Shown one piece after another: positions 2,883-14,797 of a DNA stretch of 64,000 nt. The notes beneath the pieces are model-generated. The model was given only the letters and a program-made list of their open reading frames with translations, was not told the DNA's origin and searched no databases. A program made the translations under genes and the position numbers. Each line of letters starts with the position of its first letter. Positions within the stretch are counted from its first letter, which is position 1. This stretch comes from an uncultured delta proteobacterium (GTDB lineage Bacteria > Myxococcota_A > Polyangia > Fen-1088): contig CAWCMR010000025.1 of assembly GCA_963796685.1 (NCBI GenBank), positions 672,001 to 736,000 of the forward strand, in the 5' to 3' direction.

Positions 2883-3559
2883 TGCCGCGAATTCCCGGTT
2901 TCTTGCCTGGCGACCTTACCTTTGCGGCTGACCTGTCCACATTACCGTATGTGGAGCCCCAGATGGACTTTCACGCCACCGGAGGCGAGGATGATCCGAG
3001 CGCTGCCCACGTGCGCCTGGCGCAGGCCGGAGATGCAGAGGGCTACAAGCAGCTCTTTCGCCTGCACGTGCGGCGGTTGCATCGTCTGGTGGCCCGCCTG
3101 GCTGGTCCTGGTTGCGATGTGGAGGATCTGGTGCAGACCATCTTCGTCGAGGCTTTTGCAGCGCTTCCCGGCTTTCGCAGCGATTCGTCTTTCTTCACCT
3201 GGCTCGGGCGCATCGCCATCCGCATCACGCTGCGCCTCTCCAAGCAATCGCGCTATCGGCCCTTGCCAGTCGATGACGGACGGGATGCCGTCGTGGGGAT
3301 TTCGCCAGAGGGCGCCTCCGACGCGCGGCGCGCGCTGGCGCGCTTCGACGCTATTCTCGACTCGCTCTCGGACAAGCGGCGCGCGGCTTTCGTGCTGCAC
3401 GTTCTGCAAGGCCATAGCCTGGAGGAAGTGGCCGCACTGCTCGATGCCAAGGTCGGCGCCATCAAGGTTCGCGTGCATGATGCGCGCGTGGAAATCGAAC
3501 GCCAGGCGAGGCGCGATCCCTACCTTGCGCGCTACCTGCAATGGGAGATCAGACCATGA
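2882..3559 (+). CDS. ECF RNA polymerase sigma factor
   Basis: Region 2 (DVEDLVQTIF, FFTWLGRIA) and region 4 (AFVLHVLQGHSLEEVA, IKVRVHDAR); GTG 2882 preceded by GGAGG; start uncertain. Confidence 0.9.
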   Translation: MPRIPGFLPGDLTFAADLSTLPYVEPQMDFHATGGEDDPSAAHVRLAQAGDAEGYKQLFRLHVRRLHRLVARLAGPGCDVEDLVQTIFVEAFAALPGFRSDSSFFTWLGRIAIRITLRLSKQSRYRPLPVDDGRDAVVGISPEGASDARRALARFDAILDSLSDKRRAAFVLHVLQGHSLEEVAALLDAKVGAIKVRVHDARVEIERQARRDPYLARYLQWEIRP

Positions 3560-4902
3560 ATGCGTGTAAGAAGACGCAGTCCTTGCTGTTCGAGAAAGCC
3601 GACGGCCGGCTTTCGGCGGACGTGTGCGCCGAGATGGAGTCCCACCTGGCCATCTGTCCCCACTGCAAGCAAACCTTCGCGGCGTGGACCTCTGCCCTGC
3701 CGCGTCTGCGTAGCCTGGACGCCGAGGAGATCTCCGCCGTCAGCCTGCGCCGCATGGAGAGCGAGATCTTGCGCGATCTGCACGGCAGCGTCCGGCCCCG
3801 TTCGCGCCGCAGGCTGGTTTTCGCGCTGGCTGCCGCCCTGATCCTGGCCGCAGGCGCCGGGCTGCTGGCGATCCGATCCGCGCCGCCGCAGCCGTTCGCA
3901 CGCATTCAGAGCCTGTGGGGCAAGGTCACGCTTTCGGGCGTAGCCATGAGCAAGGGCGCGACCGTGGGGCCAGGTGGGGTGCTCGAAATCACCTCGGAGG
4001 GCGAGGCCGACTTCCTCATCGGCCGGGGCGCGGAAGCGCGACTGATGGGACCTGGGCGCGTGGCCTTCGACGGCACGACCAAGGCTCCTCGGCTTCGTCT
4101 CGACAGCGGTCGCGTCTTCGTGCAAGTGGCCCATCGGCAACCGGATGAGAGTTTCCGCGTGACCACCGCGGATGGCCGGGTGGAGGTGACCGGCACGCGC
4201 TTCGTGGTGGGGTACGACGCGCAGGGATCCTACGTCCACGTGGACGAGGGCCAGGTGCTGGCCTATCGCCAGGGCGAGCCCGAGCCATGGCCAGTCGGAT
4301 CCGGCTCGACCTTCTCGCTCAAAGCCGAAAAACCGCCGGGGGGGAACCCGCTGCCCGCCGTGGAGCCGGTGCCCGACGCGCGGGCATGCGCGGGGTCGGC
4401 CTGCGCCGAGGAGGGCGCGCGCGCGCGCAAGGCCATGCGCGCGGGCAATCCCTTGCGCGCGGTCAACATCGTGGACGAGACGCTGGCCAAGCTCGAAGAC
4501 TGCTCGCCGGCGTCGCGCTGTCTCGACGAGCTTGGCTATCTGCGTGCCGAGGCCTTGCGCCAGGCCGGCCGCCTGGACGGCGCGATCGCGGCCTACAAAT
4601 CGCTCAATCGCGCCGGGGCAACGCGAGCCATGCGACAGAACGCGCTCTACGCCGCGGCCCAGTTGGAGCGCAAGCTCGGCCGGAACGAGGACGCGCGACA
4701 AAGCCTGGAACGCGCCTACACCGCCTATCCTGACGGCGCGCTTTCCGAGGAGGCCCTGGCCGGGCTCTTGGATGTGCAGCAAGCCACGGGCGCGGGCGCG
4801 CGGGCCGCCGCCGAGCGATACCTGGCTCGCTTTCCGCAGGGGATCTCGGCGGCCCGGGCTCGGCGTATCCTGTCGGGTGCGCCATCGGCTCGGCCCCGCT
4901 GA
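3556..4902 (+). CDS. Anti-sigma factor: zinc-finger, TM helix, FecR domain, TPR-like C-terminus
   Basis: HLAICPHC zinc motif, hydrophobic helix, FecR motif VEVTGTRFVV...VDEGQV; ATGA overlap with the sigma stop. Confidence 0.85.
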   Translation: MNACKKTQSLLFEKADGRLSADVCAEMESHLAICPHCKQTFAAWTSALPRLRSLDAEEISAVSLRRMESEILRDLHGSVRPRSRRRLVFALAAALILAAGAGLLAIRSAPPQPFARIQSLWGKVTLSGVAMSKGATVGPGGVLEITSEGEADFLIGRGAEARLMGPGRVAFDGTTKAPRLRLDSGRVFVQVAHRQPDESFRVTTADGRVEVTGTRFVVGYDAQGSYVHVDEGQVLAYRQGEPEPWPVGSGSTFSLKAEKPPGGNPLPAVEPVPDARACAGSACAEEGARARKAMRAGNPLRAVNIVDETLAKLEDCSPASRCLDELGYLRAEALRQAGRLDGAIAAYKSLNRAGATRAMRQNALYAAAQLERKLGRNEDARQSLERAYTAYPDGALSEEALAGLLDVQQATGAGARAAAERYLARFPQGISAARARRILSGAPSARPR

Positions 4903-6083
4903 TGTCCTCCTGCTCGTCCTTTCGAGTCGTCGCTTCCGGCGCGCACAGCGCGACGATCTTCGCGCTGTTGGCCGGGCTCGTGGCCCCCACGGGTTGCGTT
5001 CGCGACGTGGAGCTGGCGAGCGCGCCCGTGCTCGTCCATTGCGCAGGCGACGGTGAGACCTGCGCAAGCGACGACCTGTGCTGCTCGGGCACCTGTGCGG
5101 CGGGGGCCTGTGCTCACACGCTTTGCCTCGACGAGGGCTTGGCCTGCCAGCGCCCCGAAGACTGCTGCTCGTACCTTTGTCAGCAGGACGGCAGCGGGCA
5201 GCTTTCCTGCGCCTCGGACCTGGGCTGCGCCGGCCCGGCAATGCCGTGCGGCCGGGCAGCGGCATGCTGTGGCCTCGGCTGCGCCGAGACCGGCACCTGC
5301 GGAGGAACCCTCTGTGCCGAAAGCGGCGCGGCCTGCACCGTGGCCAGCGATTGCTGTGGTGGACGCTGCGACGCCGGCAAGTGCGCGGCGCCCGGGCCAG
5401 GCTGTCATGTGGCGGGCGAAGCCTGTGCCAGCGGGGATGAGTGTTGTGGCGGCCAATGTGGATCGGTCCTCGAGGGCGTCAGCGGATGTCTTCTCTTGAC
5501 CGGTTGTCGGGTGGCCGGCGAAACCTGCGGCAACGCCACCGATTGCTGCTCGGGATTGTGCCAAGTGGGCGCCGATGGTGCGGCCAACTGCAAGGCCCTC
5601 CCTGGTTGCAAAATCATCTCAGAGCGATGCGCGACGGCCAAGGACTGCTGTTCGGGCGCGTGCGGAACGGACGGGCGCTGCCAGGGCGCCGGCGGATGTT
5701 TTCCAAAGGACGAGCGCTGCCAATCCAACGACGATTGCTGCTCGGGTGCCTGCCACACGGTCCCTGAAGGCGTTCTCCGCTGCGCGGACGTCCCGGGTTG
5801 CAAGGCCGCCGGGGTATCGTGCAAGAAATCCGCCGAGTGCTGCGATACCGCTGCCGTGTGCAATGGCGACGGGCGTTGCCAGGTGACCAGCGTCTGTCGA
5901 GCCGGAGAGCGACCGTGCTCCCTGCCCGCCGATTGTTGCTCGGGCGTGTGCACGCCCAGCCTCACGGGCAAGCTGGCCTGCCGCGACTCATGCGCCCCCG
6001 CGGGCGCCCCGTGTACGGGCGCGGCCGACTGCTGCACGGGAAGCTGCGGCGGCTTTCCGGCGCGCTGCCTGCCGGTTCCGTAG
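4902..6083 (+). CDS. Cys-rich repeat lipoprotein
   Basis: Lipobox-like PTGC followed by about ten repeats of C-x3-G-x2-C-x5-CC-x3-C; TGATG coupling. Confidence 0.85.
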   Translation: MSSCSSFRVVASGAHSATIFALLAGLVAPTGCVRDVELASAPVLVHCAGDGETCASDDLCCSGTCAAGACAHTLCLDEGLACQRPEDCCSYLCQQDGSGQLSCASDLGCAGPAMPCGRAAACCGLGCAETGTCGGTLCAESGAACTVASDCCGGRCDAGKCAAPGPGCHVAGEACASGDECCGGQCGSVLEGVSGCLLLTGCRVAGETCGNATDCCSGLCQVGADGAANCKALPGCKIISERCATAKDCCSGACGTDGRCQGAGGCFPKDERCQSNDDCCSGACHTVPEGVLRCADVPGCKAAGVSCKKSAECCDTAAVCNGDGRCQVTSVCRAGERPCSLPADCCSGVCTPSLTGKLACRDSCAPAGAPCTGAADCCTGSCGGFPARCLPVP

Positions 6084-6106
6084 CGATTCTAGGTGGCAGC
6101 CAATCT
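5141..6106 (+). repeat. Copy 1 of a ~960 bp imperfect direct repeat (3' part of the Cys-rich gene plus the last codons of malQ)
   Basis: Aligns to 13841-14797 at offset 8700 then 8691; both copies end tagcgattctaggtggcagccaatct. Confidence 0.95.
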
Positions 6107-6514
6107 GCCGACCAGTTGACACTCGACCATCTGGCCAATGCCTCCGTGCAAGGCCTGGTCGCGACGGGGCCGCGCCGAGGCCGCCGCGTGTTGCGTCTGG
6201 GAGGTCGCGGCGAGGATGCCGAGGCCGCAATCATAGGCAAGCGATGCGCGGAGGTCGCGGGTTTCAATGTGCACGCGAACGTACGCGTGGGTGCCAACGA
6301 TCGCGACGGCCTCGAACACTTGTGTCGCTACCTTGCCAGGCCGCCCATTGCCAACGACCGCCTACAAGAACTGCCCGACGGCCGGCTTGCCTTGCGCTTC
6401 AAGCGAGTTTGGCGGAACGGCACGACGCAGATCGTATTCACGCCGCACGAGCTGATAGAGAAGCTGATCCCGTTGATTCCCCGACCTCGTTGCCATCTTG
6501 TCCGATAACACGGG
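6107..6514 (+). pseudogene. IS91/ISCR-type rolling-circle transposase, internal fragment
   Basis: GFNVHANVRV...DRDGLEHLCRYLARPP...FTPHELIEKL...PRPRCHLVR*HG; no 5' half; the expected RYHG has TAA at the Tyr and is followed by the RIT end. Confidence 0.88.
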
Positions 6515-6646
6515 TTATGCAGAGCACCGCATAAGCCATGTTATGCGGAGCGCTCGATTATGCGGAGTGCCGCGATGTGCCCGTCACGATCCCTGCGTGT
6601 CGGCGGGTAGTTGACCGCGTGGCGCGCCCTAGACGGCTCAGCATAA
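6515..6646. repeat. Left end of the outer RIT element
   Basis: Palindrome TTATGC-agagcacc-GCATAA at 6515-6534; TTATGCGGAG at 6541 and 6558 (17 bp period); inverted CTCAGCATAA at 6637-6646. Confidence 0.85.
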
Positions 6647-6705: not shown

Positions 6706-7947
6706 ATGTTGGAGTACTTTCTGCGATCGGCGTACTGGCTCGCGCGAGCTCGATCGAGTCCCGTTGGGTCGTATCTCGACGGCTTCGCCACTGCTCTACG
6801 CGAGATCGGCTACTGCAAGCGGATTGGCACATGGTGCATCACCTACGCCGTGCATCTCGGCATTTGGGCCACTGCTGAGGACGTGCGAATCGGGGATTTG
6901 GACGAGGAAACTTTGAGCGCATTCTTGGCGCACCTGTCTCGATGCCGTTGCCCCGGAAACCGCGCCGGTTTTCATGCAGTCGCCCGTCCGCGCACGTGGG
7001 TCTTCGTGCAGTACTTGCGCACAGTGGGGGTCGTTGCGGTTCCGGGGCAGCAGGCGATAGCAACACCGGATCTGGTGACGGGGTTTTGCGAGTGGATGCG
7101 GCGCCAGCGTGGCGCCACAGATACGACCTTGCGCCACTACAGGCGCGTTGCCATCGCACTCCTGGAACACCTCGGTGACGACCCCGCTCGCTACGGGGCG
7201 GGCGTGCTTCGAGCGGCGGTGCGTGAGGTAGTCGGTGGACATGGCGCCGCAACGGCGAAGCAAGTTACGACCGTCGCACGCGCATTTCTGCGCTACCTCG
7301 CACTGGAGGGACGGTGCCGACCTGGTCTTGATGCGGCCGTCCTGCCAGTGGCGAGTTGGAGTTTGGATTCGCTGCCGAGGTACGTGTCCGCCGAAGTCGT
7401 GCAGCGGATCATCGACGCGTGCGATTCGAGTCGACCGGACGGTGCGCGCGACCGCGCCATCCTGCTGCTCCTCGCCCGGCTCGGACTACGGGGCGGCGAC
7501 ATCGTCCGGATGCGCCTAAGCGACATCGACTGGGCAAACGCTCGCGTGCAGGTCGCGGGCAAGGGGCGCCGCGAGGTGCGGCTGCCGCTCCCCCAGGAAG
7601 TCGGAGATGCGATCCTCGCCTACTTGCGCGCCCGGCGCGCTGTTGTCGGATGTGACCGGGTTTTTCTGAGATCCCGTGCACCGTGGCGGCCGTTGGCGGA
7701 AAGTTCCTGCGTTTCCTGCATCGTCAAGCGCGCCATCGCCCGTGCGGGCGCATCCACCCCGACCCGGGGCGCTCATCTACTGCGTCACTCTGCCGCGACG
7801 GCGATGCTACGTGAAGGCATCTCCCTTCCTTCGATCGGAATAGTGCTCCGGCACCGATCTGTCGAGACGACCTCCCACTACGCCAAGGTCGATGTGGAGC
7901 TTCTGCGTTCAGTGGCGCAGCCGTGGATCGGAGGGGCGTCATGCTGA
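6706..7947 (+). CDS. Tyrosine recombinase, RitA-type (outer RIT)
   Basis: RDRAILLLLARLGLR, GKGRR, HLLRHS, LRH...TTSHYAKVD; GAGGAGG ribosome-binding site. Confidence 0.92.
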   Translation: MLEYFLRSAYWLARARSSPVGSYLDGFATALREIGYCKRIGTWCITYAVHLGIWATAEDVRIGDLDEETLSAFLAHLSRCRCPGNRAGFHAVARPRTWVFVQYLRTVGVVAVPGQQAIATPDLVTGFCEWMRRQRGATDTTLRHYRRVAIALLEHLGDDPARYGAGVLRAAVREVVGGHGAATAKQVTTVARAFLRYLALEGRCRPGLDAAVLPVASWSLDSLPRYVSAEVVQRIIDACDSSRPDGARDRAILLLLARLGLRGGDIVRMRLSDIDWANARVQVAGKGRREVRLPLPQEVGDAILAYLRARRAVVGCDRVFLRSRAPWRPLAESSCVSCIVKRAIARAGASTPTRGAHLLRHSAATAMLREGISLPSIGIVLRHRSVETTSHYAKVDVELLRSVAQPWIGGASC

Positions 7948-8660
7948 TGACACTCATCGATACCTGGCTGGCCACGCGGCGAGCAAGCGGTTTCGCGCTC
8001 AGAAAATACGAGCGGCACCTGCGTCGATTCGCCGAGTTCGCCGCCGCCCGCGGCGAGGACCACGTTCGCGCCGAAACCGCCCTCGCGTGGGCATCGCACG
8101 CGGCCACACCTGGCCAGCGGTGCCGGCTCTTCCAGCGGGTCGTTCAACTCGCCCGCTATCTCCACGCCGAAGACCCCCGCCACGAGATTCCCCCGGATCG
8201 CCACTTCTCGGGAAAGCGGCATCGGCCGGTTCCGTACATCTACACCCCGGACGAAACGCGCCGGCTCGTCGAGGTCGCAGCGCGGCTCGGACCAGCAAAG
8301 TCGCTCCGGCCGCTCACCGTGAGCACGATGCTGGCGCTGCTCTTTGCGACAGGGCTACGCATCTCAGAAGCACTCGCCTTGCGCATGGCTGACGTGACAT
8401 CGGACGGCCTGGTCATCCGCAAGACCAAGTTCGGCAAGACGCGTCTGGTCCCGCTCCATCCCTCGGCGCAGAGCGGGATCAAGCAGTATCTGGACCGCCG
8501 ACGTGCAGTGGCCGGCAGCGACGACCACGTGTTCGTGAGCATCAAAGGCACGCGTCTTTCCTACGGCGGCTTTCGCAAGGCATGGCTCACGGTGCTCCGG
8601 AAAGCTGGCCTGCCGGCGCGGTCGGGAGGACGCAAACCGCGCGTGCACGACATCCGGCAT
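7941..8660 (+). pseudogene. Tyrosine recombinase, RitB-type, truncated at HDIRH by the inner RIT
   Basis: PYIYT, TGLRISEAL, KTKFGKTRLVPLH; homology stops at CGG CAT (8655-8660), where the inner inverted repeat begins. Confidence 0.9.
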
Positions 8661-8687
8661 TATGCCGAGTCCCCGGTTATGCCGAGT
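8655..8687 (+). repeat. Inner RIT left inverted repeat (33 bp)
   Basis: cggcattatgccgagtccccggttatgccgagt, the exact reverse complement of 12026-12058. Confidence 0.95.
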
Positions 8688-8800
8688 GAGCCTCTCGATC
8701 TGGCGCGATCAACGGCGATTTCCTCGGCAGGTGGGCTTGCGGACTCGGCATAACCAGGGCGTCGTCGTCTCCTTCTGGCCACCGGGCCGAAGGAGGACAC

Positions 8801-10033
8801 ATGCCCCGGATGCACGACGATTTTCTGAAATGGCAACGACTGCGCGCTGGCCCCTTGGGTCCGCACCTCGACACGTTTGCAAAAACGCTCACTGAGAGGG
8901 GATATCCGCCTGCGACCGTGGCGTGCAAGGTGCGCCTGGCAGCGAAGTTCGGAGACTGGCTTGGACGGCGAGGACTGACTGTCGAGGAGGTCGACGAGCA
9001 GGCCGTAGCCCGCTTTGTCCGGCGCCATCCCTGCGTACCCCGGCGTGGAGACGCAGCGACATTGCGTGATGTCCTTGAACGGGTCCGTTCCGCCGGTCTT
9101 GCGCCGCCAGCGCCCGTCAAGGTCGATGACACTGCGATCGGGCGGATCGTGAGTGAGTTCGGCCGGTATCTGTTGGTGGACCGCGGCTTGTCCGTCTTGA
9201 CTCAGATCAACTACCTGCCCATTGTCCGCTCGTTCCTCCTGGAGCGGTTCGACGGCAGGAGGGTGCACCTCAATGCGCTCGGGCCCCAGGATGCGGGTGA
9301 ATTTCTGGTCCGGCATGTTCACGTGGTCCATCCAAAGAGAGCCGCTCTGATGGTTACCGCCCTACGCGGTTTTCTGCGGTGGGTGCACGTGAAAAGAGCC
9401 CTGGCTGCAGACCTCGCGGCCACGGTTCCCGCGGTCGCCTGCTGGCGTTTCTCAACGGTGCCGAAATCGATCCCCGCGCGCGACGTCGAGCATCTGTTGC
9501 GCCGCTGTCGACGAAGAAACTCCGAAGCCGGCCTGCGCGACCACGCGGTCATTATGCTGATGGCACGACTCGGCCTCCGCGGTGGAGAAGTCGTGAGCCT
9601 GGATCTGGCAGACTTCGACTGGGCCGCAGGCACGTTGCGGGTCCACGGCAAGGGTGGGCGGCAAGACGTCCTCCCGTTGCCGTCCGATGTCGGCAAGGCC
9701 GTCGCCCGGTACTTGCGCCATGGCCGCCCAGCATGCTCGTGCCGGAGAGTCTTCGTCCGCGCGAGAGCGCCGCGGCGTGGCTTCGCAACCACGGGCGCGG
9801 TCTGTACGATCGTGAAGCGAGCGCTGGAACGCGCCGAACTGGACCCACCACGCAAAGGCGGGCACATCCTCCGCCATGCGCTCGCCTGCTCGATGCTGCG
9901 CCGAGGAGCGACCCTTACCGAGATCGGGCAGGTCCTGCGACACCGTCGAGCCGATACGACGACGATTTACGCGAAGGTAGACTTCCATGCGCTACGTGCG
10001 CTCGCTCCTGCATGGCCAGGAGGCAGGCGATGA
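8801..10033 (+). CDS. Tyrosine recombinase RitA (inner RIT)
   Basis: RDHAVIMLMARLGLR, HILRHA, TTTIYAKVD; AGGAGG ribosome-binding site. Confidence 0.93.
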   Translation: MPRMHDDFLKWQRLRAGPLGPHLDTFAKTLTERGYPPATVACKVRLAAKFGDWLGRRGLTVEEVDEQAVARFVRRHPCVPRRGDAATLRDVLERVRSAGLAPPAPVKVDDTAIGRIVSEFGRYLLVDRGLSVLTQINYLPIVRSFLLERFDGRRVHLNALGPQDAGEFLVRHVHVVHPKRAALMVTALRGFLRWVHVKRALAADLAATVPAVACWRFSTVPKSIPARDVEHLLRRCRRRNSEAGLRDHAVIMLMARLGLRGGEVVSLDLADFDWAAGTLRVHGKGGRQDVLPLPSDVGKAVARYLRHGRPACSCRRVFVRARAPRRGFATTGAVCTIVKRALERAELDPPRKGGHILRHALACSMLRRGATLTEIGQVLRHRRADTTTIYAKVDFHALRALAPAWPGGRR

Positions 10034-10965
10034 ATACGCTCCGCGAGGGCGCCGAGGAGTACCTGTCGCTGCGACGCCGTCTGGGCTACAAGCTCGACCG
10101 CTCGGGGCGGTTACTGCTGCAATTTGTGTCCTTCATGGAGCAGCGGAAGGCTCCGTTCATTACCAACGATCTGGTCGTCGAATGGGCCGTGCGGCCGACC
10201 AAGACCCAGCCCGTGTATTGGGCCAGCCGGCTATCGGCGGTCCGGCTCTTTGCACAGTATTGGCGCGCCACCGATTCTCGCACCGAGGTCCCTGCCCTCG
10301 GGCTCCTCCGGGCTCGGTATCAACGCAAGCGCCCCTACATATACAGCGAGGACGAGATCATGCGGCTGATGGATGCGGCGGCACGGCTCCCATCGCAGAC
10401 GGGGCTTCGTGCTCAGACCTACGTCACGCTGCTTGGCCTGCTCACCGTGGCCGGTCTGAGGATCAGCGAGGCGATCGCTCTCGACCGCGAGGATGTTGAC
10501 CTCGAAGGCGGGATCCTGACAATCCGCCGGACCAAATTCGGGAAGACCCGGCTGGTGCCCATTCATCGATCGACGAAACTGGCACTTTGCCGGTACGCAC
10601 GCTTCCGTGATCGCGTTCATCCAACACCACGGACGAGAAGCTTCTTCGTCGGCGAGACAGGTGCCCGGGTGGTGAAGAACACTGCAGAAGACACCTTCGT
10701 CCATCTGTCTCGCCGGATTGGGCTTCGTGGTCCTGAAGGTCGTCACGGTCATGGGCCGCGTCTGCATGACCTTCGGCATCGGTGGGCCGTGGACACCATG
10801 CTGCGCTGGTACCGGGCAGGAGTCGATGTGGAGCGGCACCTGCCGCAGCCGTCGACCTACCTCGGGCACACCCACGTCAGTGATACCTACTGGTACCTGA
10901 CCGCAGTGCCCGAGTTGATGAGCCTCGCCATGTCGCTCCTGGAGCGAGATAGGACGTCGCCGTGA
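10030..10965 (+). CDS. Tyrosine recombinase RitB (inner RIT)
   Basis: PYIYS, GLRISEA, TKFGKTRLVP, HDLRH, STYLGH...TYWYL; ATGA overlap. Confidence 0.93.
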   Translation: MNTLREGAEEYLSLRRRLGYKLDRSGRLLLQFVSFMEQRKAPFITNDLVVEWAVRPTKTQPVYWASRLSAVRLFAQYWRATDSRTEVPALGLLRARYQRKRPYIYSEDEIMRLMDAAARLPSQTGLRAQTYVTLLGLLTVAGLRISEAIALDREDVDLEGGILTIRRTKFGKTRLVPIHRSTKLALCRYARFRDRVHPTPRTRSFFVGETGARVVKNTAEDTFVHLSRRIGLRGPEGRHGHGPRLHDLRHRWAVDTMLRWYRAGVDVERHLPQPSTYLGHTHVSDTYWYLTAVPELMSLAMSLLERDRTSP

Positions 10966-11960
10966 AGCCCTCCCACGGATTCCCTGCGCTGCTTGAGTCC
11001 TTCTTCGTGGACCATCTCCTGCGCCAGCGTCAAGCAAGTCCACATACAGTGCAGAGCTATCGCGATACCTTCCGCCTACTGCTGGCCTTCACGAAGCAGC
11101 ACCTGAAGAAGACTCCCTCGGCGCTCGCACTGGACGACCTCGACACACCAACGATTGGCGCGTTCCTGGATCACATCGAGAAGGACCGCGGCAACTCTCC
11201 GCGCACCCGCAACGCCAGGCTCGCGGCGATCCACTCCTTCTTCCAGTACGCCGCCCTCCAGGCGCCCGACTACAGCGCCGTCATCCAGAGGGTTCTGGCC
11301 ATGCAGGGCAAGAAATACGATCGCGAGCTCGTCCACTTCCTGTCCCGGCCCGAGATCGACGCACTCCTCGAAGCTCCCGACAAGGCCACATGGTCCGGCC
11401 GGCGCGATCGCGCCATGCTCCTTGTGGCCGTTCAGACCGGGCTGCGCGTATCCGAGCTGGCCGCGCTCAACGTGCAGGACGTGGTCCTCGGACCCGGCGC
11501 GTACGTTCACTGCCTCGGCAAGGGCCGCAAGGAACGTTGCACGCCCCTGCGCAAAGAGGCCGTCTCGGTCCTCCGGGCGTGGCTGCGCGAACGTGCCGCC
11601 ACCGGGACCGAGCCCCTCTTCCCCAACGCGCGGGGCGGTTTCCTCAGTCGCGACGGCGTCGAGTACCTGCTCGCGAAACACGTGCAGGTCGCTCGGATCC
11701 GCTGCCCCTCGCTGAGGGAGAAGCATGTGTCTCCGCACGTGCTGCGCCACTCGACGGCAATGGATCTCCTTCAAGCCGGTGTCGACAGCTCGGTGATCGC
11801 GCTCTGGCTTGGTCACGAGTCGGTCGAGACCACGCAGATCTACTTCGCTGCCAGTCTCCAGCTCAAAGAGCGAGCGCTGGCCAAGACAGCACCCTCGGCA
11901 GCGCGACCTGCTCGCTTCCACCCCGACGACAAGCTCCTCGCCTTCCTACAGAGCCTTTGA
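10962..11960 (+). CDS. Tyrosine recombinase RitC (inner RIT)
   Basis: SYRDTFRLLL, TRNARLAAI, GKGRKER, SPHVLRHS, LWLGHES..TTQIY; GTGA overlap. Confidence 0.93.
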   Translation: MKPSHGFPALLESFFVDHLLRQRQASPHTVQSYRDTFRLLLAFTKQHLKKTPSALALDDLDTPTIGAFLDHIEKDRGNSPRTRNARLAAIHSFFQYAALQAPDYSAVIQRVLAMQGKKYDRELVHFLSRPEIDALLEAPDKATWSGRRDRAMLLVAVQTGLRVSELAALNVQDVVLGPGAYVHCLGKGRKERCTPLRKEAVSVLRAWLRERAATGTEPLFPNARGGFLSRDGVEYLLAKHVQVARIRCPSLREKHVSPHVLRHSTAMDLLQAGVDSSVIALWLGHESVETTQIYFAASLQLKERALAKTAPSAARPARFHPDDKLLAFLQSL

Positions 11961-12025
11961 TTATGCCGAGTCGCGCACGTAAGCGAACCCGAAGTCCCCG
12001 TGATTCCTGCATGCAATGGCGGGCA

Positions 12026-12085
12026 ACTCGGCATAACCGGGGACTCGGCATAATGCCGCTTATGCCGAGCACGGCATAAGCGGCA
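12026..12085. repeat. Inner RIT right inverted repeat plus adjacent 32 bp palindrome
   Basis: Inverted repeat at 12026-12058; tgccgcttatgccg-agca-cggcataagcggca at 12054-12085. Confidence 0.93.
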
Positions 12086-12173
12086 CACATGCGCGTTGGA
12101 CACGCTCCGGGCCACCGGGGATCTCCGCAAGGTGTCGCTCTGGCTCGGACACACGAGCCAGTCGACCACCGAG
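12081..12173 (+). pseudogene. C-terminal remnant of a RitC-type recombinase (outer RIT)
   Basis: Reads RHTCALDTLRATGDLRKVSLWLGHTSQSTTE and breaks off before the catalytic Tyr. Confidence 0.85.
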
Positions 12174-12373
12174 AAGTTCTCAGGAACAGATAGGGAAATG
12201 AACGTCTTCTCGATTGCCGCCTCCCTCTTTGACGGCACAACGGCCTATATCTGGCTCTCCTGACATCTTCGTAAAGGGAGATCTCGTAGGTGCGACGCAC
12301 GTCGTCGACGGAGATGTGGGCGGCATGAGTTTCGGGTGAGGTGGAGACGAAGTGCGCACGGGCACCTGGGGGT

Positions 12374-12433
12374 GCCCGTGTATAGGGGATAGATCGAGGA
12401 GGCTGACGTGTGGGTCTTTGTAGTTGACGTAAG
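12374..12433 (+). repeat. ~60 bp direct repeat, copy 1
   Basis: 35 bp core gaggctgacgtgtgggtctttgtagttgacgtaag identical to 13620-13654. Confidence 0.92.
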
Positions 12434-12502
12434 AAATAGCGATTTGCGGGAGTCGAGCGGAGCCGGAGGCGGAGCTTGCATTCCCGCAAACATGAGTTGG
12501 AC
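12434..12502 (+). other. Imperfect hairpin with partial attC-like layout
   Basis: tttgcggga...tcccgcaaa arms, 5 nt spacer, then GTTGGAC (GTTRRRY); the left core reads AAT rather than AAC. Confidence 0.35.
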
Positions 12503-12746
12503 GGAGCCGCTTGCACGGCAGCTTGGCGGCTATGCGCCTATGCAATCGTCGTCCGGCTGCTGCGCCTGCGAGCAAAGCCGACGGTGACTTTTGAGAGGAT
12601 GCCGGACAAGGCAGTGAGCAAGATCTTGGTTGCGAAGATGGTGTAAATCGTCGGGACGCCACTGGTTGCACCAAGCACTGGCAGATGCGGACAGACGGGT
12701 GGCCACGACGTCACGAAGACGGGAGAGATCGTGCTGTTCAGGACGG

Positions 12747-13595
12747 TCATGCAGTACCAGCCTTGCGTGGGGGAGCGCGAGTTGGCGGTAGTAGTTGACG
12801 GACTATTGTGCGTTGCTGACAGCGAGGGCAGAGCAGGACATCTTTTCCCGTGAGCGCAAGCAGCAACTCTGGCCAGGGAAGATTTGGATCGACCCCGCCG
12901 ACGGATGCAAGACCGTCACCATCATCGTAGCCATCATGCTGAGCGTCGGCAGATGCGGTGGCGGGCACGAGGTCGGCAGCGTGCTTCAGCCTGGTGTTGA
13001 CGTTGCCGGAGGCCATGAGTCCGAAGTGGCGAATCTTTACGAATTGGTTGGGTAGGATGTGTTGAAGAAATCTCCCGATGAATTCGGTCGGCGACAATGA
13101 GGTGGTGTCGCTGCCGTGGGTACGGAAGACGACCGCCTGGTCGTCCACGCTGACCAGGCGAGCGTTGCTGATGGCCACGCGATGCGTATACCTGCCGAGA
13201 TAGCGAAACACTTGCTCGGGACCACCGAAGGGGCGCTTGGCGTAGACGACCCAGCTTGTCTTGTACAGGCGCTGCCTGCGGCGACGGGCAGCACGGTCTG
13301 GGACATCGTCGTGCAACTCGCCTTTGTCGAGCAGCTGTTGCAGGCCGGCCATGAACTTGCCCCGAAAGAGAGCGCCCACGACATGGACGGGAAATAGAAA
13401 GTCGCGTGGCGCCGGTACCCACTAGCTCTGGTCGCGCGCAAGACCGCCGCCGGTGACGATACAATGGACATGGGGATGAAACAGGAGGGCGAAGATCTTG
13501 GCTCTGTTGTTGCGGGCGAGACTGTGCAACTCGCTGGGAATGGTGAAGACGATGTGGAAGTAGTGGACTGGCAAGATGCGCTCAAGGCGACCCTC
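12747..13595 (-). pseudogene. IS91-family (IS801/IS1294-like) Y2 transposase, decayed
   Basis: ILPVHYFHIVFTIP, HPHVHCIVTGGG (HUH), WVVYAKRPF, RYLGRYTHRVAISN, KIRHFG; in-frame TAG at 13422-13424, internal deletion, 5' end cut by the 60 bp repeat. Confidence 0.92.
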
Positions 13596-13654
13596 GCCCG
13601 GGTATAGGGATAGATCGAAGAGGCTGACGTGTGGGTCTTTGTAGTTGACGTAAG
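13596..13654 (+). repeat. ~60 bp direct repeat, copy 2
   Basis: Matches 12374-12433 with about three differences in the first 25 nt. Confidence 0.92.
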
Positions 13655-13840
13655 CTTCTTACCGGACATTTACTCCGGATGCGTTTCGGTGAAGGAAAGA
13701 GAGGCGCTCAAAACAACTACGCTCATCCGAGCACGAGGCTGCTATCCCGCCCAACACGCCCGGACGGCTATTGTACCGATTACAAGCTTCTGCGGCGGCT
13801 CTACTTCAAGCACCGCAGCGGCGGCAGCTGGCGAGGACAC

Positions 13841-14797
13841 GGCCTGCCATCGTCCCGAGGACTGCTGCTCGTACCTTTGTCAGCAGGACGGCAGCGGACA
13901 ACTTTCCTGTGCCTCGGACCTGGGCTGCGCCAGCTCGGCGATGCCGTGTGGTCGCGCGGCGGCATGCTGTGACCTCGCGTGTGGCGGCACGGGGACGTGC
14001 GACGGGCCGATCTGCGCCCAAAGCGGCGCGGCCTGCACCGTGGCCAGCGATTGCTGTGGCGGACGCTGCAACGCCGGCAAGTGCGCGGCGCCCGGGCCAG
14101 GCTGCCATGTGGCGGGCGAAACCTGTGCCGGCGGGGATGAGTGTTGTGGCGGCCAATGTGGGTCGGTCCTCGATGGCGTCACTTCTCTTGACCGGTTGTC
14201 GGGGGCCGGCGAGACCTGTGGTAACGCCACCGATTGCTGCTCGGGATTGTGCCAAGTGGGCGCCGATGGTGCGGCCAACTGCAAGGCCCTCCCTGGTTGC
14301 AAAATCATCTCAGAGCGATGCGCGACGGCCAAGGACTGCTGTTCCGGTGTGTGCGGAACGGACGGGCGCTGCCAGGGCGCCGGCGGATGTTTTCCAAAGG
14401 ACGAACGCTGCCAATCCAACGACGATTGCTGCTCGGGTGCCTGCCACACCGTCCCTGAAGGCGTTCTTCGCTGCGCGGACGTCCCGGGTTGCAAGGCCGC
14501 CGGGGTATCGTGCAAGAAATCCGCCGAGTGCTGCGATGCCGCTGCCGTGTGCAATGGCGACGGGCGTTGCCAAGTGACCAGCGTCTGTCGAGCCGGAGAG
14601 CGACCGTGCTCCCTGCCCGCCGATTGTTGCTCGGGCGTGTGCACGCCCAGCCTCACGGGCAAGCTGGCCTGCCGCGAGTCATGCGCCCCCGCGGGCGCCC
14701 CGTGTACGGGCGCGTCCGACTGCTGCACGGGAAGCTGCGGCGGCTTTCCCGCGCGCTGCCTGCCGGTTCCGTAGCGATTCTAGGTGGCAGCCAATCT
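13841..14797 (+). pseudogene. Copy 2 of the direct repeat: 5'-truncated Cys-rich gene (stop 14774) running into the malQ 3' end
   Basis: No signal peptide; 8 bp and 1 bp deletions near 14181 and 14203 relative to copy 1. Confidence 0.88.

Follow-up and report, generated by a model that had tools for sequence, protein, structure and literature searches.

Insertion of one RIT transposon at the Arg-His codons of another in an uncultured delta proteobacterium

We have analysed a 64-kb stretch of DNA (64,000 nucleotides; positions 672,001 to 736,000 of the forward strand of contig CAWCMR010000025.1, assembly GCA_963796685.1) from an uncultured delta proteobacterium, in which one recombinase-in-trio (RIT) element has been inserted into another. 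The whole stretch is called the window hereafter; the element that is interrupted in it is the outer RIT, and the element inserted into the outer RIT is the inner RIT. The source genome is referred to as G000, the other contigs discussed as C10, C11 and C12, and the copy in the 64-kb stretch itself as the window copy. The region is nested mobile DNA at three levels, namely a gene of IS91/ISCR type, the outer RIT within it, and the inner RIT within the outer one.

The target of the outer RIT is a fragment of an IS91/ISCR-family (Y2) transposase gene at 6101..6508 (+), identified by Pfam Y2_Tnp (profile positions 77-171 of 183) and by NCBIfam ISCR/IS91. It ends with ...HLVR*HG at the junction, and the remainder of this IS91-type gene (ILGPAAKDRAKVVP...) lies beyond the right end of the outer RIT in C11. 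The left end of the outer RIT (6509..6567) consists of a junction core CACGGG (6509-6514), a palindromic module (6515-6534), an inner core GCCATG (6535-6540) and two direct 10-bp repeats, TTATGCGGAG, at 6541..6567, which is the same layout as that of the module-bearing end of the inner RIT. It is followed by an intact ritA (6706..7947, +, 413 aa; Phage_integrase 3-169 of 172), which has three copies in the genome, and by the 5' part of ritB (7941..8660, +; the first 246 codons). The original prediction, made from the letters of the window, had read this left flank as a RitB-type gene ending in HDI-R-H. Indeed, its Phage_integrase match (4-134 of 172) stops at 134, and the letters CAC GAC ATC CGG CAT at 8646-8660 give H-D-I-R-H at the end of the open reading frame (ORF), where the inner RIT contributes its first letter, T, to the final His codon. 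At the right junction, CGG CAC (12081-12086) leads into TCALDTLRATGDLRKVSLWLGHTSQSTTE, which extends to 12174 and matches the Pfam profile at 133-164. RitC homologues and Pfam identify this piece (12081..12174, +) as a tail fragment of the outer ritC, RH TCALD...STTE, which breaks off 4 nt short of the codon for the catalytic Tyr (STTE/IY, the slash here and below marking the break). CGGCA is present at both junctions, as predicted (8655-8659 and 12081-12085). The truncation of the outer RIT is marked by 120 bp from the end of a 1.41-kb insertion sequence that has ~14 copies (12252..12371); the 77 nt between this fragment and the ritC tail (window 12172-12251) have no other occurrence in the genome.

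The inner RIT is complete and occupies 3.4 kb (window 8660-12079). Its left junction core, CCGGCA (8654..8659), is attL-like and is placed by the 6-nt core geometry described below. In the left end (8660..8753), the 10-bp repeat TTATGCCGAG occurs at 8660, at 8677 and, inverted, once more at 8744. Three genes follow on one strand, ritA (8801..10033, +, 410 aa), ritB (10030..10965, +, 311 aa) and ritC (10962..11960, +, 332 aa), each with a Pfam Phage_integrase domain and with 4-bp overlaps at 10030-10033 and 10962-10965. The right end (11961..12053) starts with the third 10-bp repeat at 11961 and has inverted repeats, CTCGGCATAA, at 12027 and 12044, so that there are three copies of the repeat per end. 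The last part (12054..12085) contains an inner core TGCCGC (12054-12059), a 20-bp palindromic module with the loop AGCA (12060-12079), and the right junction core GCGGCA (12080-12085). The module, which reads TTATGCCG, AGCA, CGGCATAA, thus lies between the TGCCGC that follows the right repeats and GCGGCA, and the last five letters of the latter together with C make up the Arg-His codons. In addition, a perfect 33-nt terminal inverted repeat (8655-8687 / 12026-12058) already contains CGGCA.

All three inner proteins have the catalytic RH...Y residues (HILRH...TTTIY, HDLRH...TYWY and HVLRH...TTQIY), and RitA shows SAM-like matches at 118-194 and, weakly, at 23-73. Neither Pfam nor NCBIfam holds a profile specific for RitA, RitB or RitC, and there is no fourth ORF between the ends among the ORFs of the window. 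RITs are described as having the order A, B, C, with two core-binding domains in RitA and an extra C-terminal helix in RitC (Smyshlyaev 2021, PMC8138268). By every feature tested, the inner element is an ordinary RIT. G000 holds five copies of it, which are 99.8-100% alike; ritA is frameshifted, and so split, in two of the five (C12 29924-31154 and C10 131097-132325).

The outer RIT has two further copies in G000, on C11 and C10. In both of them ritB is unbroken at ATC CGG CAC and continues with TFAVRALESS...YLGHS, so the right flank in the window is not the continuation of ritB; the identity of the window ritB to these copies stops at 8659. Instead, the window continues with the end of the outer ritC as found in C10 and C11, the identity extending to 12174. 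In G084, which belongs to the same family, the homologues of both genes are uninterrupted, and the RitC of this genome reads HSLRH TCALETLRATGDLRKVALWLGH. The window tail matches this RitC tail at 28 of 31 residues and the RitB tail of the same genome at only 7 of 31, in agreement with the prediction that the right flank is RitC-type. The distance from the ritB RH codon to the ritC RH codon is 957 bp in C10 and C11, close to the loss of roughly 1 kb that had been estimated. The 951 nt between the two cores occur in G000 only in these two copies, each time joined to an inverted insertion of the inner RIT. Two metagenome runs (X2 and X4) have one contig each that joins window 8659 to 12080 via 950 other letters and extends beyond 12174 with the natural continuation of ritC. 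Since the window tail is ritC and uninterrupted copies are found in C10, C11, G084, X2 and X4, the window copy is an outer RIT in which 957 bp have been swapped for the inner RIT.

The prediction that the outer RIT was thereby disabled stands in part. The window copy has indeed lost 957 bp, but the outer RIT with broken ritC lies at two different sites, so this breakage was not its end. In C10 and C11 it is found in two paralogous IS91-type genes (86-88% alike), once in each orientation, and in either place its ritC holds the inner RIT. The presence of the same ritC insertion at two sites implies that the composite moved, or was converted, after ritC had been broken. The insertions of the outer RIT lie at ...RYHG codons of IS91/ISCR-type transposase genes, with the core CACGGC (C11 ~3470-3600 and 10340-10452; C10 144440-144560 and 151290-151420; window 6101-6567). 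The outer ritB of C11 (~8160) has a premature stop after YLGHS, and that of C10 reads through to TYWY.

All five inner copies in G000 abut the Arg-His (HxxRH) codons of ritA, ritB or ritC genes. The window copy is in direct orientation, with the outer ritB (HDI/RH) on the left and the outer ritC tail on the right. The C12 copy is a simple direct insertion in the ritA of a third RIT, with HVL/RH on the left and the tail of the same ritA on the right; this interrupted gene is of RitA type and is 36% identical to the inner RitA. One of the C10 copies (at 129 kb), also direct, is a chimera of the same third-RIT ritA part on the left and the outer ritC tail on the right. The C11 copy and the other C10 copy (at 145 kb) are inverted, and both have the outer ritC on the left (HTL/RH) and the outer ritC tail on the right. 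There are thus four distinct junction classes in G000, all at RH codons of diverged genes.

For comparison we have used 89 genomes of the order (G000 counted), the metagenome runs X1-X4 (X3 being from soil) and the plasmid pHG1. Relatives of the inner RIT are present in 8 of the 89 genomes (G000 again counted in both numbers). In G043, a copy of 86-88% identity splits an Xer-like gene as VYPHMLRH/CFATHMLETG, and a contig of X3 with a close relative has ...HMLRH on the left and CFATHMLEAG beyond the second core. On pHG1, another RIT has the trio annotated at 131433-134607 inserted at the HTLRH codons of its ritC, whose Pfam match stops at 135 of 172; this trio lies within a 3119-bp perfect inverted duplication. 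The duplicated parts (3215-6333 / 9690-12808 of the locus, L196) contain ritA, ritB and the left part of ritC around the inner trio, and an 18+18-nt perfect palindrome (12806-12841) stands at the end of the outer RIT, beside an IS66 transposase gene. This nested trio looks like the 'maze' of truncated rit genes on pHG1 that was noted previously (Janssen 2010, PMC2864759; Van Houdt 2012, PMC3414803).

We have also scanned one genome per species with the double 10-bp repeat as query, and obtained at least 145 loci with at least 149 ends; this sample is restricted to one end motif. Since naming a flank by its longest stop-free frame is unreliable in GC-rich DNA, Pfam was run on every adjacent frame of at least 60 aa, i.e., on 243 frames at 115 of the 149 listed ends, which are all the ends with such a frame. 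Among the matches listed, 16 ends have a core made of an Arg codon plus CA, and 10 of these abut a tyrosine recombinase gene at its RH codons, seven with a Pfam Phage_integrase match broken at 133-135 and three by translation only. The original prediction would have been refuted by other insertions unrelated to recombinase genes; instead, all five G000 copies, G043, X3 and 10 of the 16 listed like-cored ends are at RH. A regular expression for recombinases was noisy on the genome (93 matches, mostly spurious), and its use was confined to reading RH codons in recombinases that were obvious.

The two junction cores of a copy can be unequal, being CGCCA/CGGCA in C12 and CGGCA/CGTCA in C11 and C10. 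In each unequal pair, one core equals the inner core of the element itself and the other is of target type. The ritC site of G084 has CGT, which fits CGT as the original letters at ritC. Such unequal pairs are what a heteroduplex in the overlap region would give, with one core from the element and one from the target. They reject a target-site duplication of DDE type, which would give identical repeats. The core length of 6 nt is derived from 44 module-bearing ends listed in other genomes, 43 of which show an 8-4-8 palindrome, a 6-nt core and then the repeats, the remaining one being offset by one base. At these listed ends, the mirroring of the core by the flank is 0.68-0.91 over the six positions and drops to 0.14 at the seventh. 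The arrangement of CGGCATAA, a 6-nt core and TTATGCCG is that of a core-type tyrosine recombinase site (lox, dif or att core), in which two inverted binding repeats enclose an overlap of 6-8 bp, with the core common to the element and its targets.

The module changes ends. In G000 the three direct copies have it at their ritC end and the two inverted copies at their ritA end; in every case it lies towards the tail of the target gene, and its loop AGCA follows the orientation of the element in all five. The same side rule is obeyed by 10 of 10 listed RH-type ends, and at the listed ends of other genomes the module is found on the ritA side 13 times and on the ritC side 11 times. The outer RIT, inserted at the YHG codons of two IS91-type paralogs, has the module next to ritA in the window copy and in that of C11, and next to ritC in C10, where it is inverted. 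The arms of this module are asymmetric and travel with the element. As the cores differ, the geometry is fixed, the module changes ends and the outer RIT behaves alike, it is likely, to judge from these sequences, that the inner element is an intact RIT transposon with three 10-bp predicted recombinase-binding repeats per end, and that it integrates by conservative site-specific recombination of the tyrosine recombinase type at a 6-bp core, GCGGCA, flanked by 10-bp repeats in inverted orientation. The letters (N)CGG CA(C) are those of the Arg-His codons of HxxRH, so that tyrosine recombinase genes, those of other RITs above all, would be the usual landing sites.

Forming the deletion in the window would need two recognition events at RH sites, one at the RH codons of ritB and one at those of ritC. 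This could occur either through a single insertion, after which one end of the element recombined with the other RH site, or through two insertions and recombination between the copies. The original prediction, that the element hit both genes or deleted the DNA between them, is supported in this sense. The first route is a real possibility, and the likelier of the two by a small margin only. Here the element would enter ritC directly, and its left junction would recombine with the ritB RH site 957 bp upstream, ejecting the intervening DNA as a circle; the mirror case would be entry into ritB and recombination of the right junction with the ritC site. The RH sites of ritB and ritC share CGGCAC ACAT / CG(T)CAC ACAT, which suits this route. 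Moreover, mismatched flanks recur elsewhere. C10 joins the left part of the third-RIT ritA to the outer ritC tail, two pairs of loci in other genomes (L075/L076 and L072/L090) join left parts of two different genes, and the trio on pHG1 is surrounded by the 3119-bp perfect palindrome; RIT ends therefore seem prone to further recombination. On the other hand, the assembly contains no intermediate, neither a direct ritC-left/element joint nor an element/ritB-tail joint, and two insertions would leave the same junction sequence.

The second route, two independent direct insertions into ritB and ritC followed by RecA recombination between the 3.4-kb copies, is possible as well. The five near-identical copies provide ample homology, and the genome has other repeat-mediated rearrangements. 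However, a single outer RIT copy would have had to be hit twice, at points separated by 957 bp, although three sites of equal quality are empty, and no relic of a single insertion is left in the assembly.

As to how the inner RIT comes to stand in both orientations, we consider a joined-end intermediate fairly probable, in which the right repeats, core', module, core and left repeats follow one another, because this is the simplest topology that accounts for the core, geometry and module observations. Once the ends are joined, either of two oppositely oriented cores would cross over with the target; the choice of core would set both insertion orientations and would shift the module from one end to the other. 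Alternatively, the module might be a fixed accessory site at one end, with the element body inverted in place between inverted cores, without excision. This is chemically plausible, as the core by the left repeats and the core' by the right repeats are exact reverse complements, yet it is improbable, since it predicts a module orientation fixed to the target. The loop instead keeps the element orientation in 5/5 copies, as do the asymmetric arms of the outer RIT module, so we have rejected in-place inversion for predicting the wrong loop orientation. One locus, L097, had appeared as a candidate circle junction, as its module is preceded by right repeats and followed by left ones, but the two sets of repeats come from different elements in tandem.

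Several points weigh against this interpretation. Six of the 16 like-cored listed ends lie away from RH codons. One of them, in a close relative, breaks a Sel1-repeat gene at AGGCACAC; the others are at an IS256-type gene, just past an integrase domain, at a recombinase-like flank, and at two ends of a mini-element. Because a close relative is found in a Sel1-repeat gene, the specificity is that of a short DNA core rather than of the protein motif. Three well-matching RH sites in G000 are empty (the outer ritB in C10 and C11, and the ritB of the third RIT). Neither a joined-end (circle) junction nor an excision product is seen, and the joints in the metagenome runs include none of circle type; in a published study, the RIT mobilome coverage was raised and circular junctions were not determinable (Nielsen et al. 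2017, PMC5737581). Finally, the G000 assembly is a draft of 26 contigs, 88.6% complete with 6.48% contamination.

The state of the assembly bears on a further alternative, namely that the window is a chimera whose junctions come from different copies merged through the repeat. The draft is incomplete and the repeat has five copies; the pairing of the junctions across 3.4 kb rests on the assembly, and of the 8 pieces listed (out of 19) from X1, the best-matching run, none bridges either junction. Such a chimera is nevertheless very unlikely, since the assembly has neither of the partner junctions that it requires (module/ritB tail, and ritC-left/left repeat in direct orientation), and the 951-nt segment occurs only twice, each time joined to an inverted insertion. 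The targeting claim would stand even then, because both junctions are at RH codons regardless. Chance, or the abundance of CGGCAC in a GC-rich genome (9307 occurrences), is excluded as the cause of the RH landings, since four junction classes together with G043, X3, other phyla and pHG1 are at the same codons of diverged genes, and only 5 of the 711 unoccupied CG[GCT]CACAC words in the genome are in real recombinase RH codons.

Two further ideas have been dropped. The RH codons of the element itself are without CG[GCT]CACAC, which might suggest self-immunity, but since the X3 target continues with TGC instead of AC, the argument has no force. A likeness of the target arms to the 10-bp repeats is weak (~3-4 of 8-10 positions by eye).

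Unequal junction cores are also familiar from integrases of the Tn916 and CTnDOT type, which tolerate heterology in the overlap region (coupling sequences). These elements, unlike the inner RIT, are conjugative, with a single integrase and Xis, and are without inverted-repeat ends. The choice of conserved active-site codons resembles that of homing endonuclease genes, group I introns and inteins, which target the most conserved DNA of a gene family, so that their sites recur across hosts. Their chemistry differs, as the inner RIT is inserted by recombinases without splicing and the host gene is destroyed.

Among the characterized RITs, those of Cupriavidus metallidurans CH34 and C. necator pHG1 are reported to have terminal inverted repeats plus an overlapping palindrome and several identical copies per genome (PMC2864759, PMC3414803), with start/stop overlaps of 4-8 bp between genes (Van Houdt 2012, PMC3414803). 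The inner RIT resembles them in its same-strand trio, 4-bp overlaps, length of ~3.4 kb, inverted repeats with a palindrome, and multiple copies, and the same event is seen on pHG1, where a trio sits at HTLRH of the ritC of another RIT. What is added here is a defined target, a 6-bp core that falls on Arg-His codons, and a reading of the palindrome as a second site of crossover; the pHG1 RITs also have end repeats other than TTATGCCGAG. Published RIT insertions include IS66 tnpA, Tn6049 tnpA and radC of an integrative and conjugative element (PMC2864759, PMC3414803). Target specificity of RITs is listed as 'not tested' in Table 1 of PMC10214605, and the compared parts of PMC3414803, PMC2864759, PMC5737581 and PMC10214605 give no target rule; Ricker 2013, which stood outside this comparison, may bear on it. 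RITs themselves are already known, but these portions of the literature hold no account of how they choose their targets. Tn554, strand-biased circularizing elements (SE) and GInts likewise have several tyrosine recombinases and are site-specific, with 6 bp shared or carried between donor and new site (PMC10214605). According to the same source, in the part compared, they need a small protein (TnpC, Srap or GinD) and are without long inverted repeats, whereas the inner RIT has three recombinases only, symmetric ends and both insertion orientations.

The target genes at the listed ends of the cross-phylum sample extend beyond tyrosine recombinases. A Pfam match was obtained at 54 of the 115 tested ends, and 50 of these 54 are genes of mobile elements: Transposase_mut at 15 ends (14 of them broken at profile 255-257), Phage_integrase at 14 (seven at RH, 133-135, and five at 62/63), RVT_1 at eight, TrwC at three, rve and AAA_22 at two each, and six other mobile-element families at one each. 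The remaining matches are Ank (two), Sel1 (one) and a DUF (one). It may be, and we propose it tentatively, that RITs as a class are homing elements in the catalytic-motif codons of genes of other mobile elements, with a 6-bp core and a target specific to each lineage. The targets in the sample are IS256-type transposase genes (255-257), RVT_1 genes (several RYAD/D by eye), recombinase genes at RH and KFxK, and IS91 genes at YHG. RITs would move through joined ends forming a symmetric junction, in which either of two 6-bp sites could serve for the crossover.

If this is true, the core in use could be rewritten by target letters, and lineages could drift to new targets. RIT ends would recombine with free target-like sites and act as site-specific rearrangers of mobile elements, and the deletion in the window, the chimeric flanks in C10 and the 3119-bp perfect palindrome of pHG1 would be products of this kind. 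RITs that appear 'disabled' could still be mobilised in trans by residents with near-identical repeats. The insertions at RH codons already show that mobile elements prey on one another at active-site codons. RitB relatives are present on 606 plasmid records, and the end motif is found in many phyla. RIT movement has never been reproduced, and the window together with its sister copies makes it testable. Filled and empty sites, both orientations and mismatched cores are at hand, and they point to a concrete recombination site of 10-bp repeats, a 6-bp core and a second inverted core.

Individual lineages were also observed in the cross-phylum sample. One of them splits IS256-type transposase genes at Pfam 255-257, after ...QRCxxH, with the plain end always on the 5' side and the module end on the 3' side (L033, L035, L041, L060, L067, L083, L109, L116, L119 and L154 versus L034, L070, L118 and L153). 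A second lineage, with the core GTCGGC or GTCCGC, abuts reverse-transcriptase genes at ...RYAD/D, i.e., within the catalytic YADD as read by eye; RVT_1 matched the flank in L055, L077, L107 and L127, with no match in L066 and L100. A further lineage breaks RitB-like recombinase genes at SKFxK codons, at Phage_integrase 62/63 (L072, L090, L140, L141, L150 and L125). In L068, L044 and L085, two inverted RIT ends are ~300 bp apart, and these may be gene-less miniature RIT derivatives, similar to miniature inverted-repeat transposable elements.

Two further pairs of repeats lie around mobile DNA in the window. Genes for Cys-rich repeat proteins at 4902-6083 and 13629-14774 (393 and 381 aa), which are 93% identical and have only sub-threshold Pfam matches, bracket the cluster. 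A 48-bp direct repeat of 98% identity (12386-12433 and 13607-13654) flanks a second IS91-family transposase fragment at 12750-13379 (-), which matches Y2_Tnp at 51-178.

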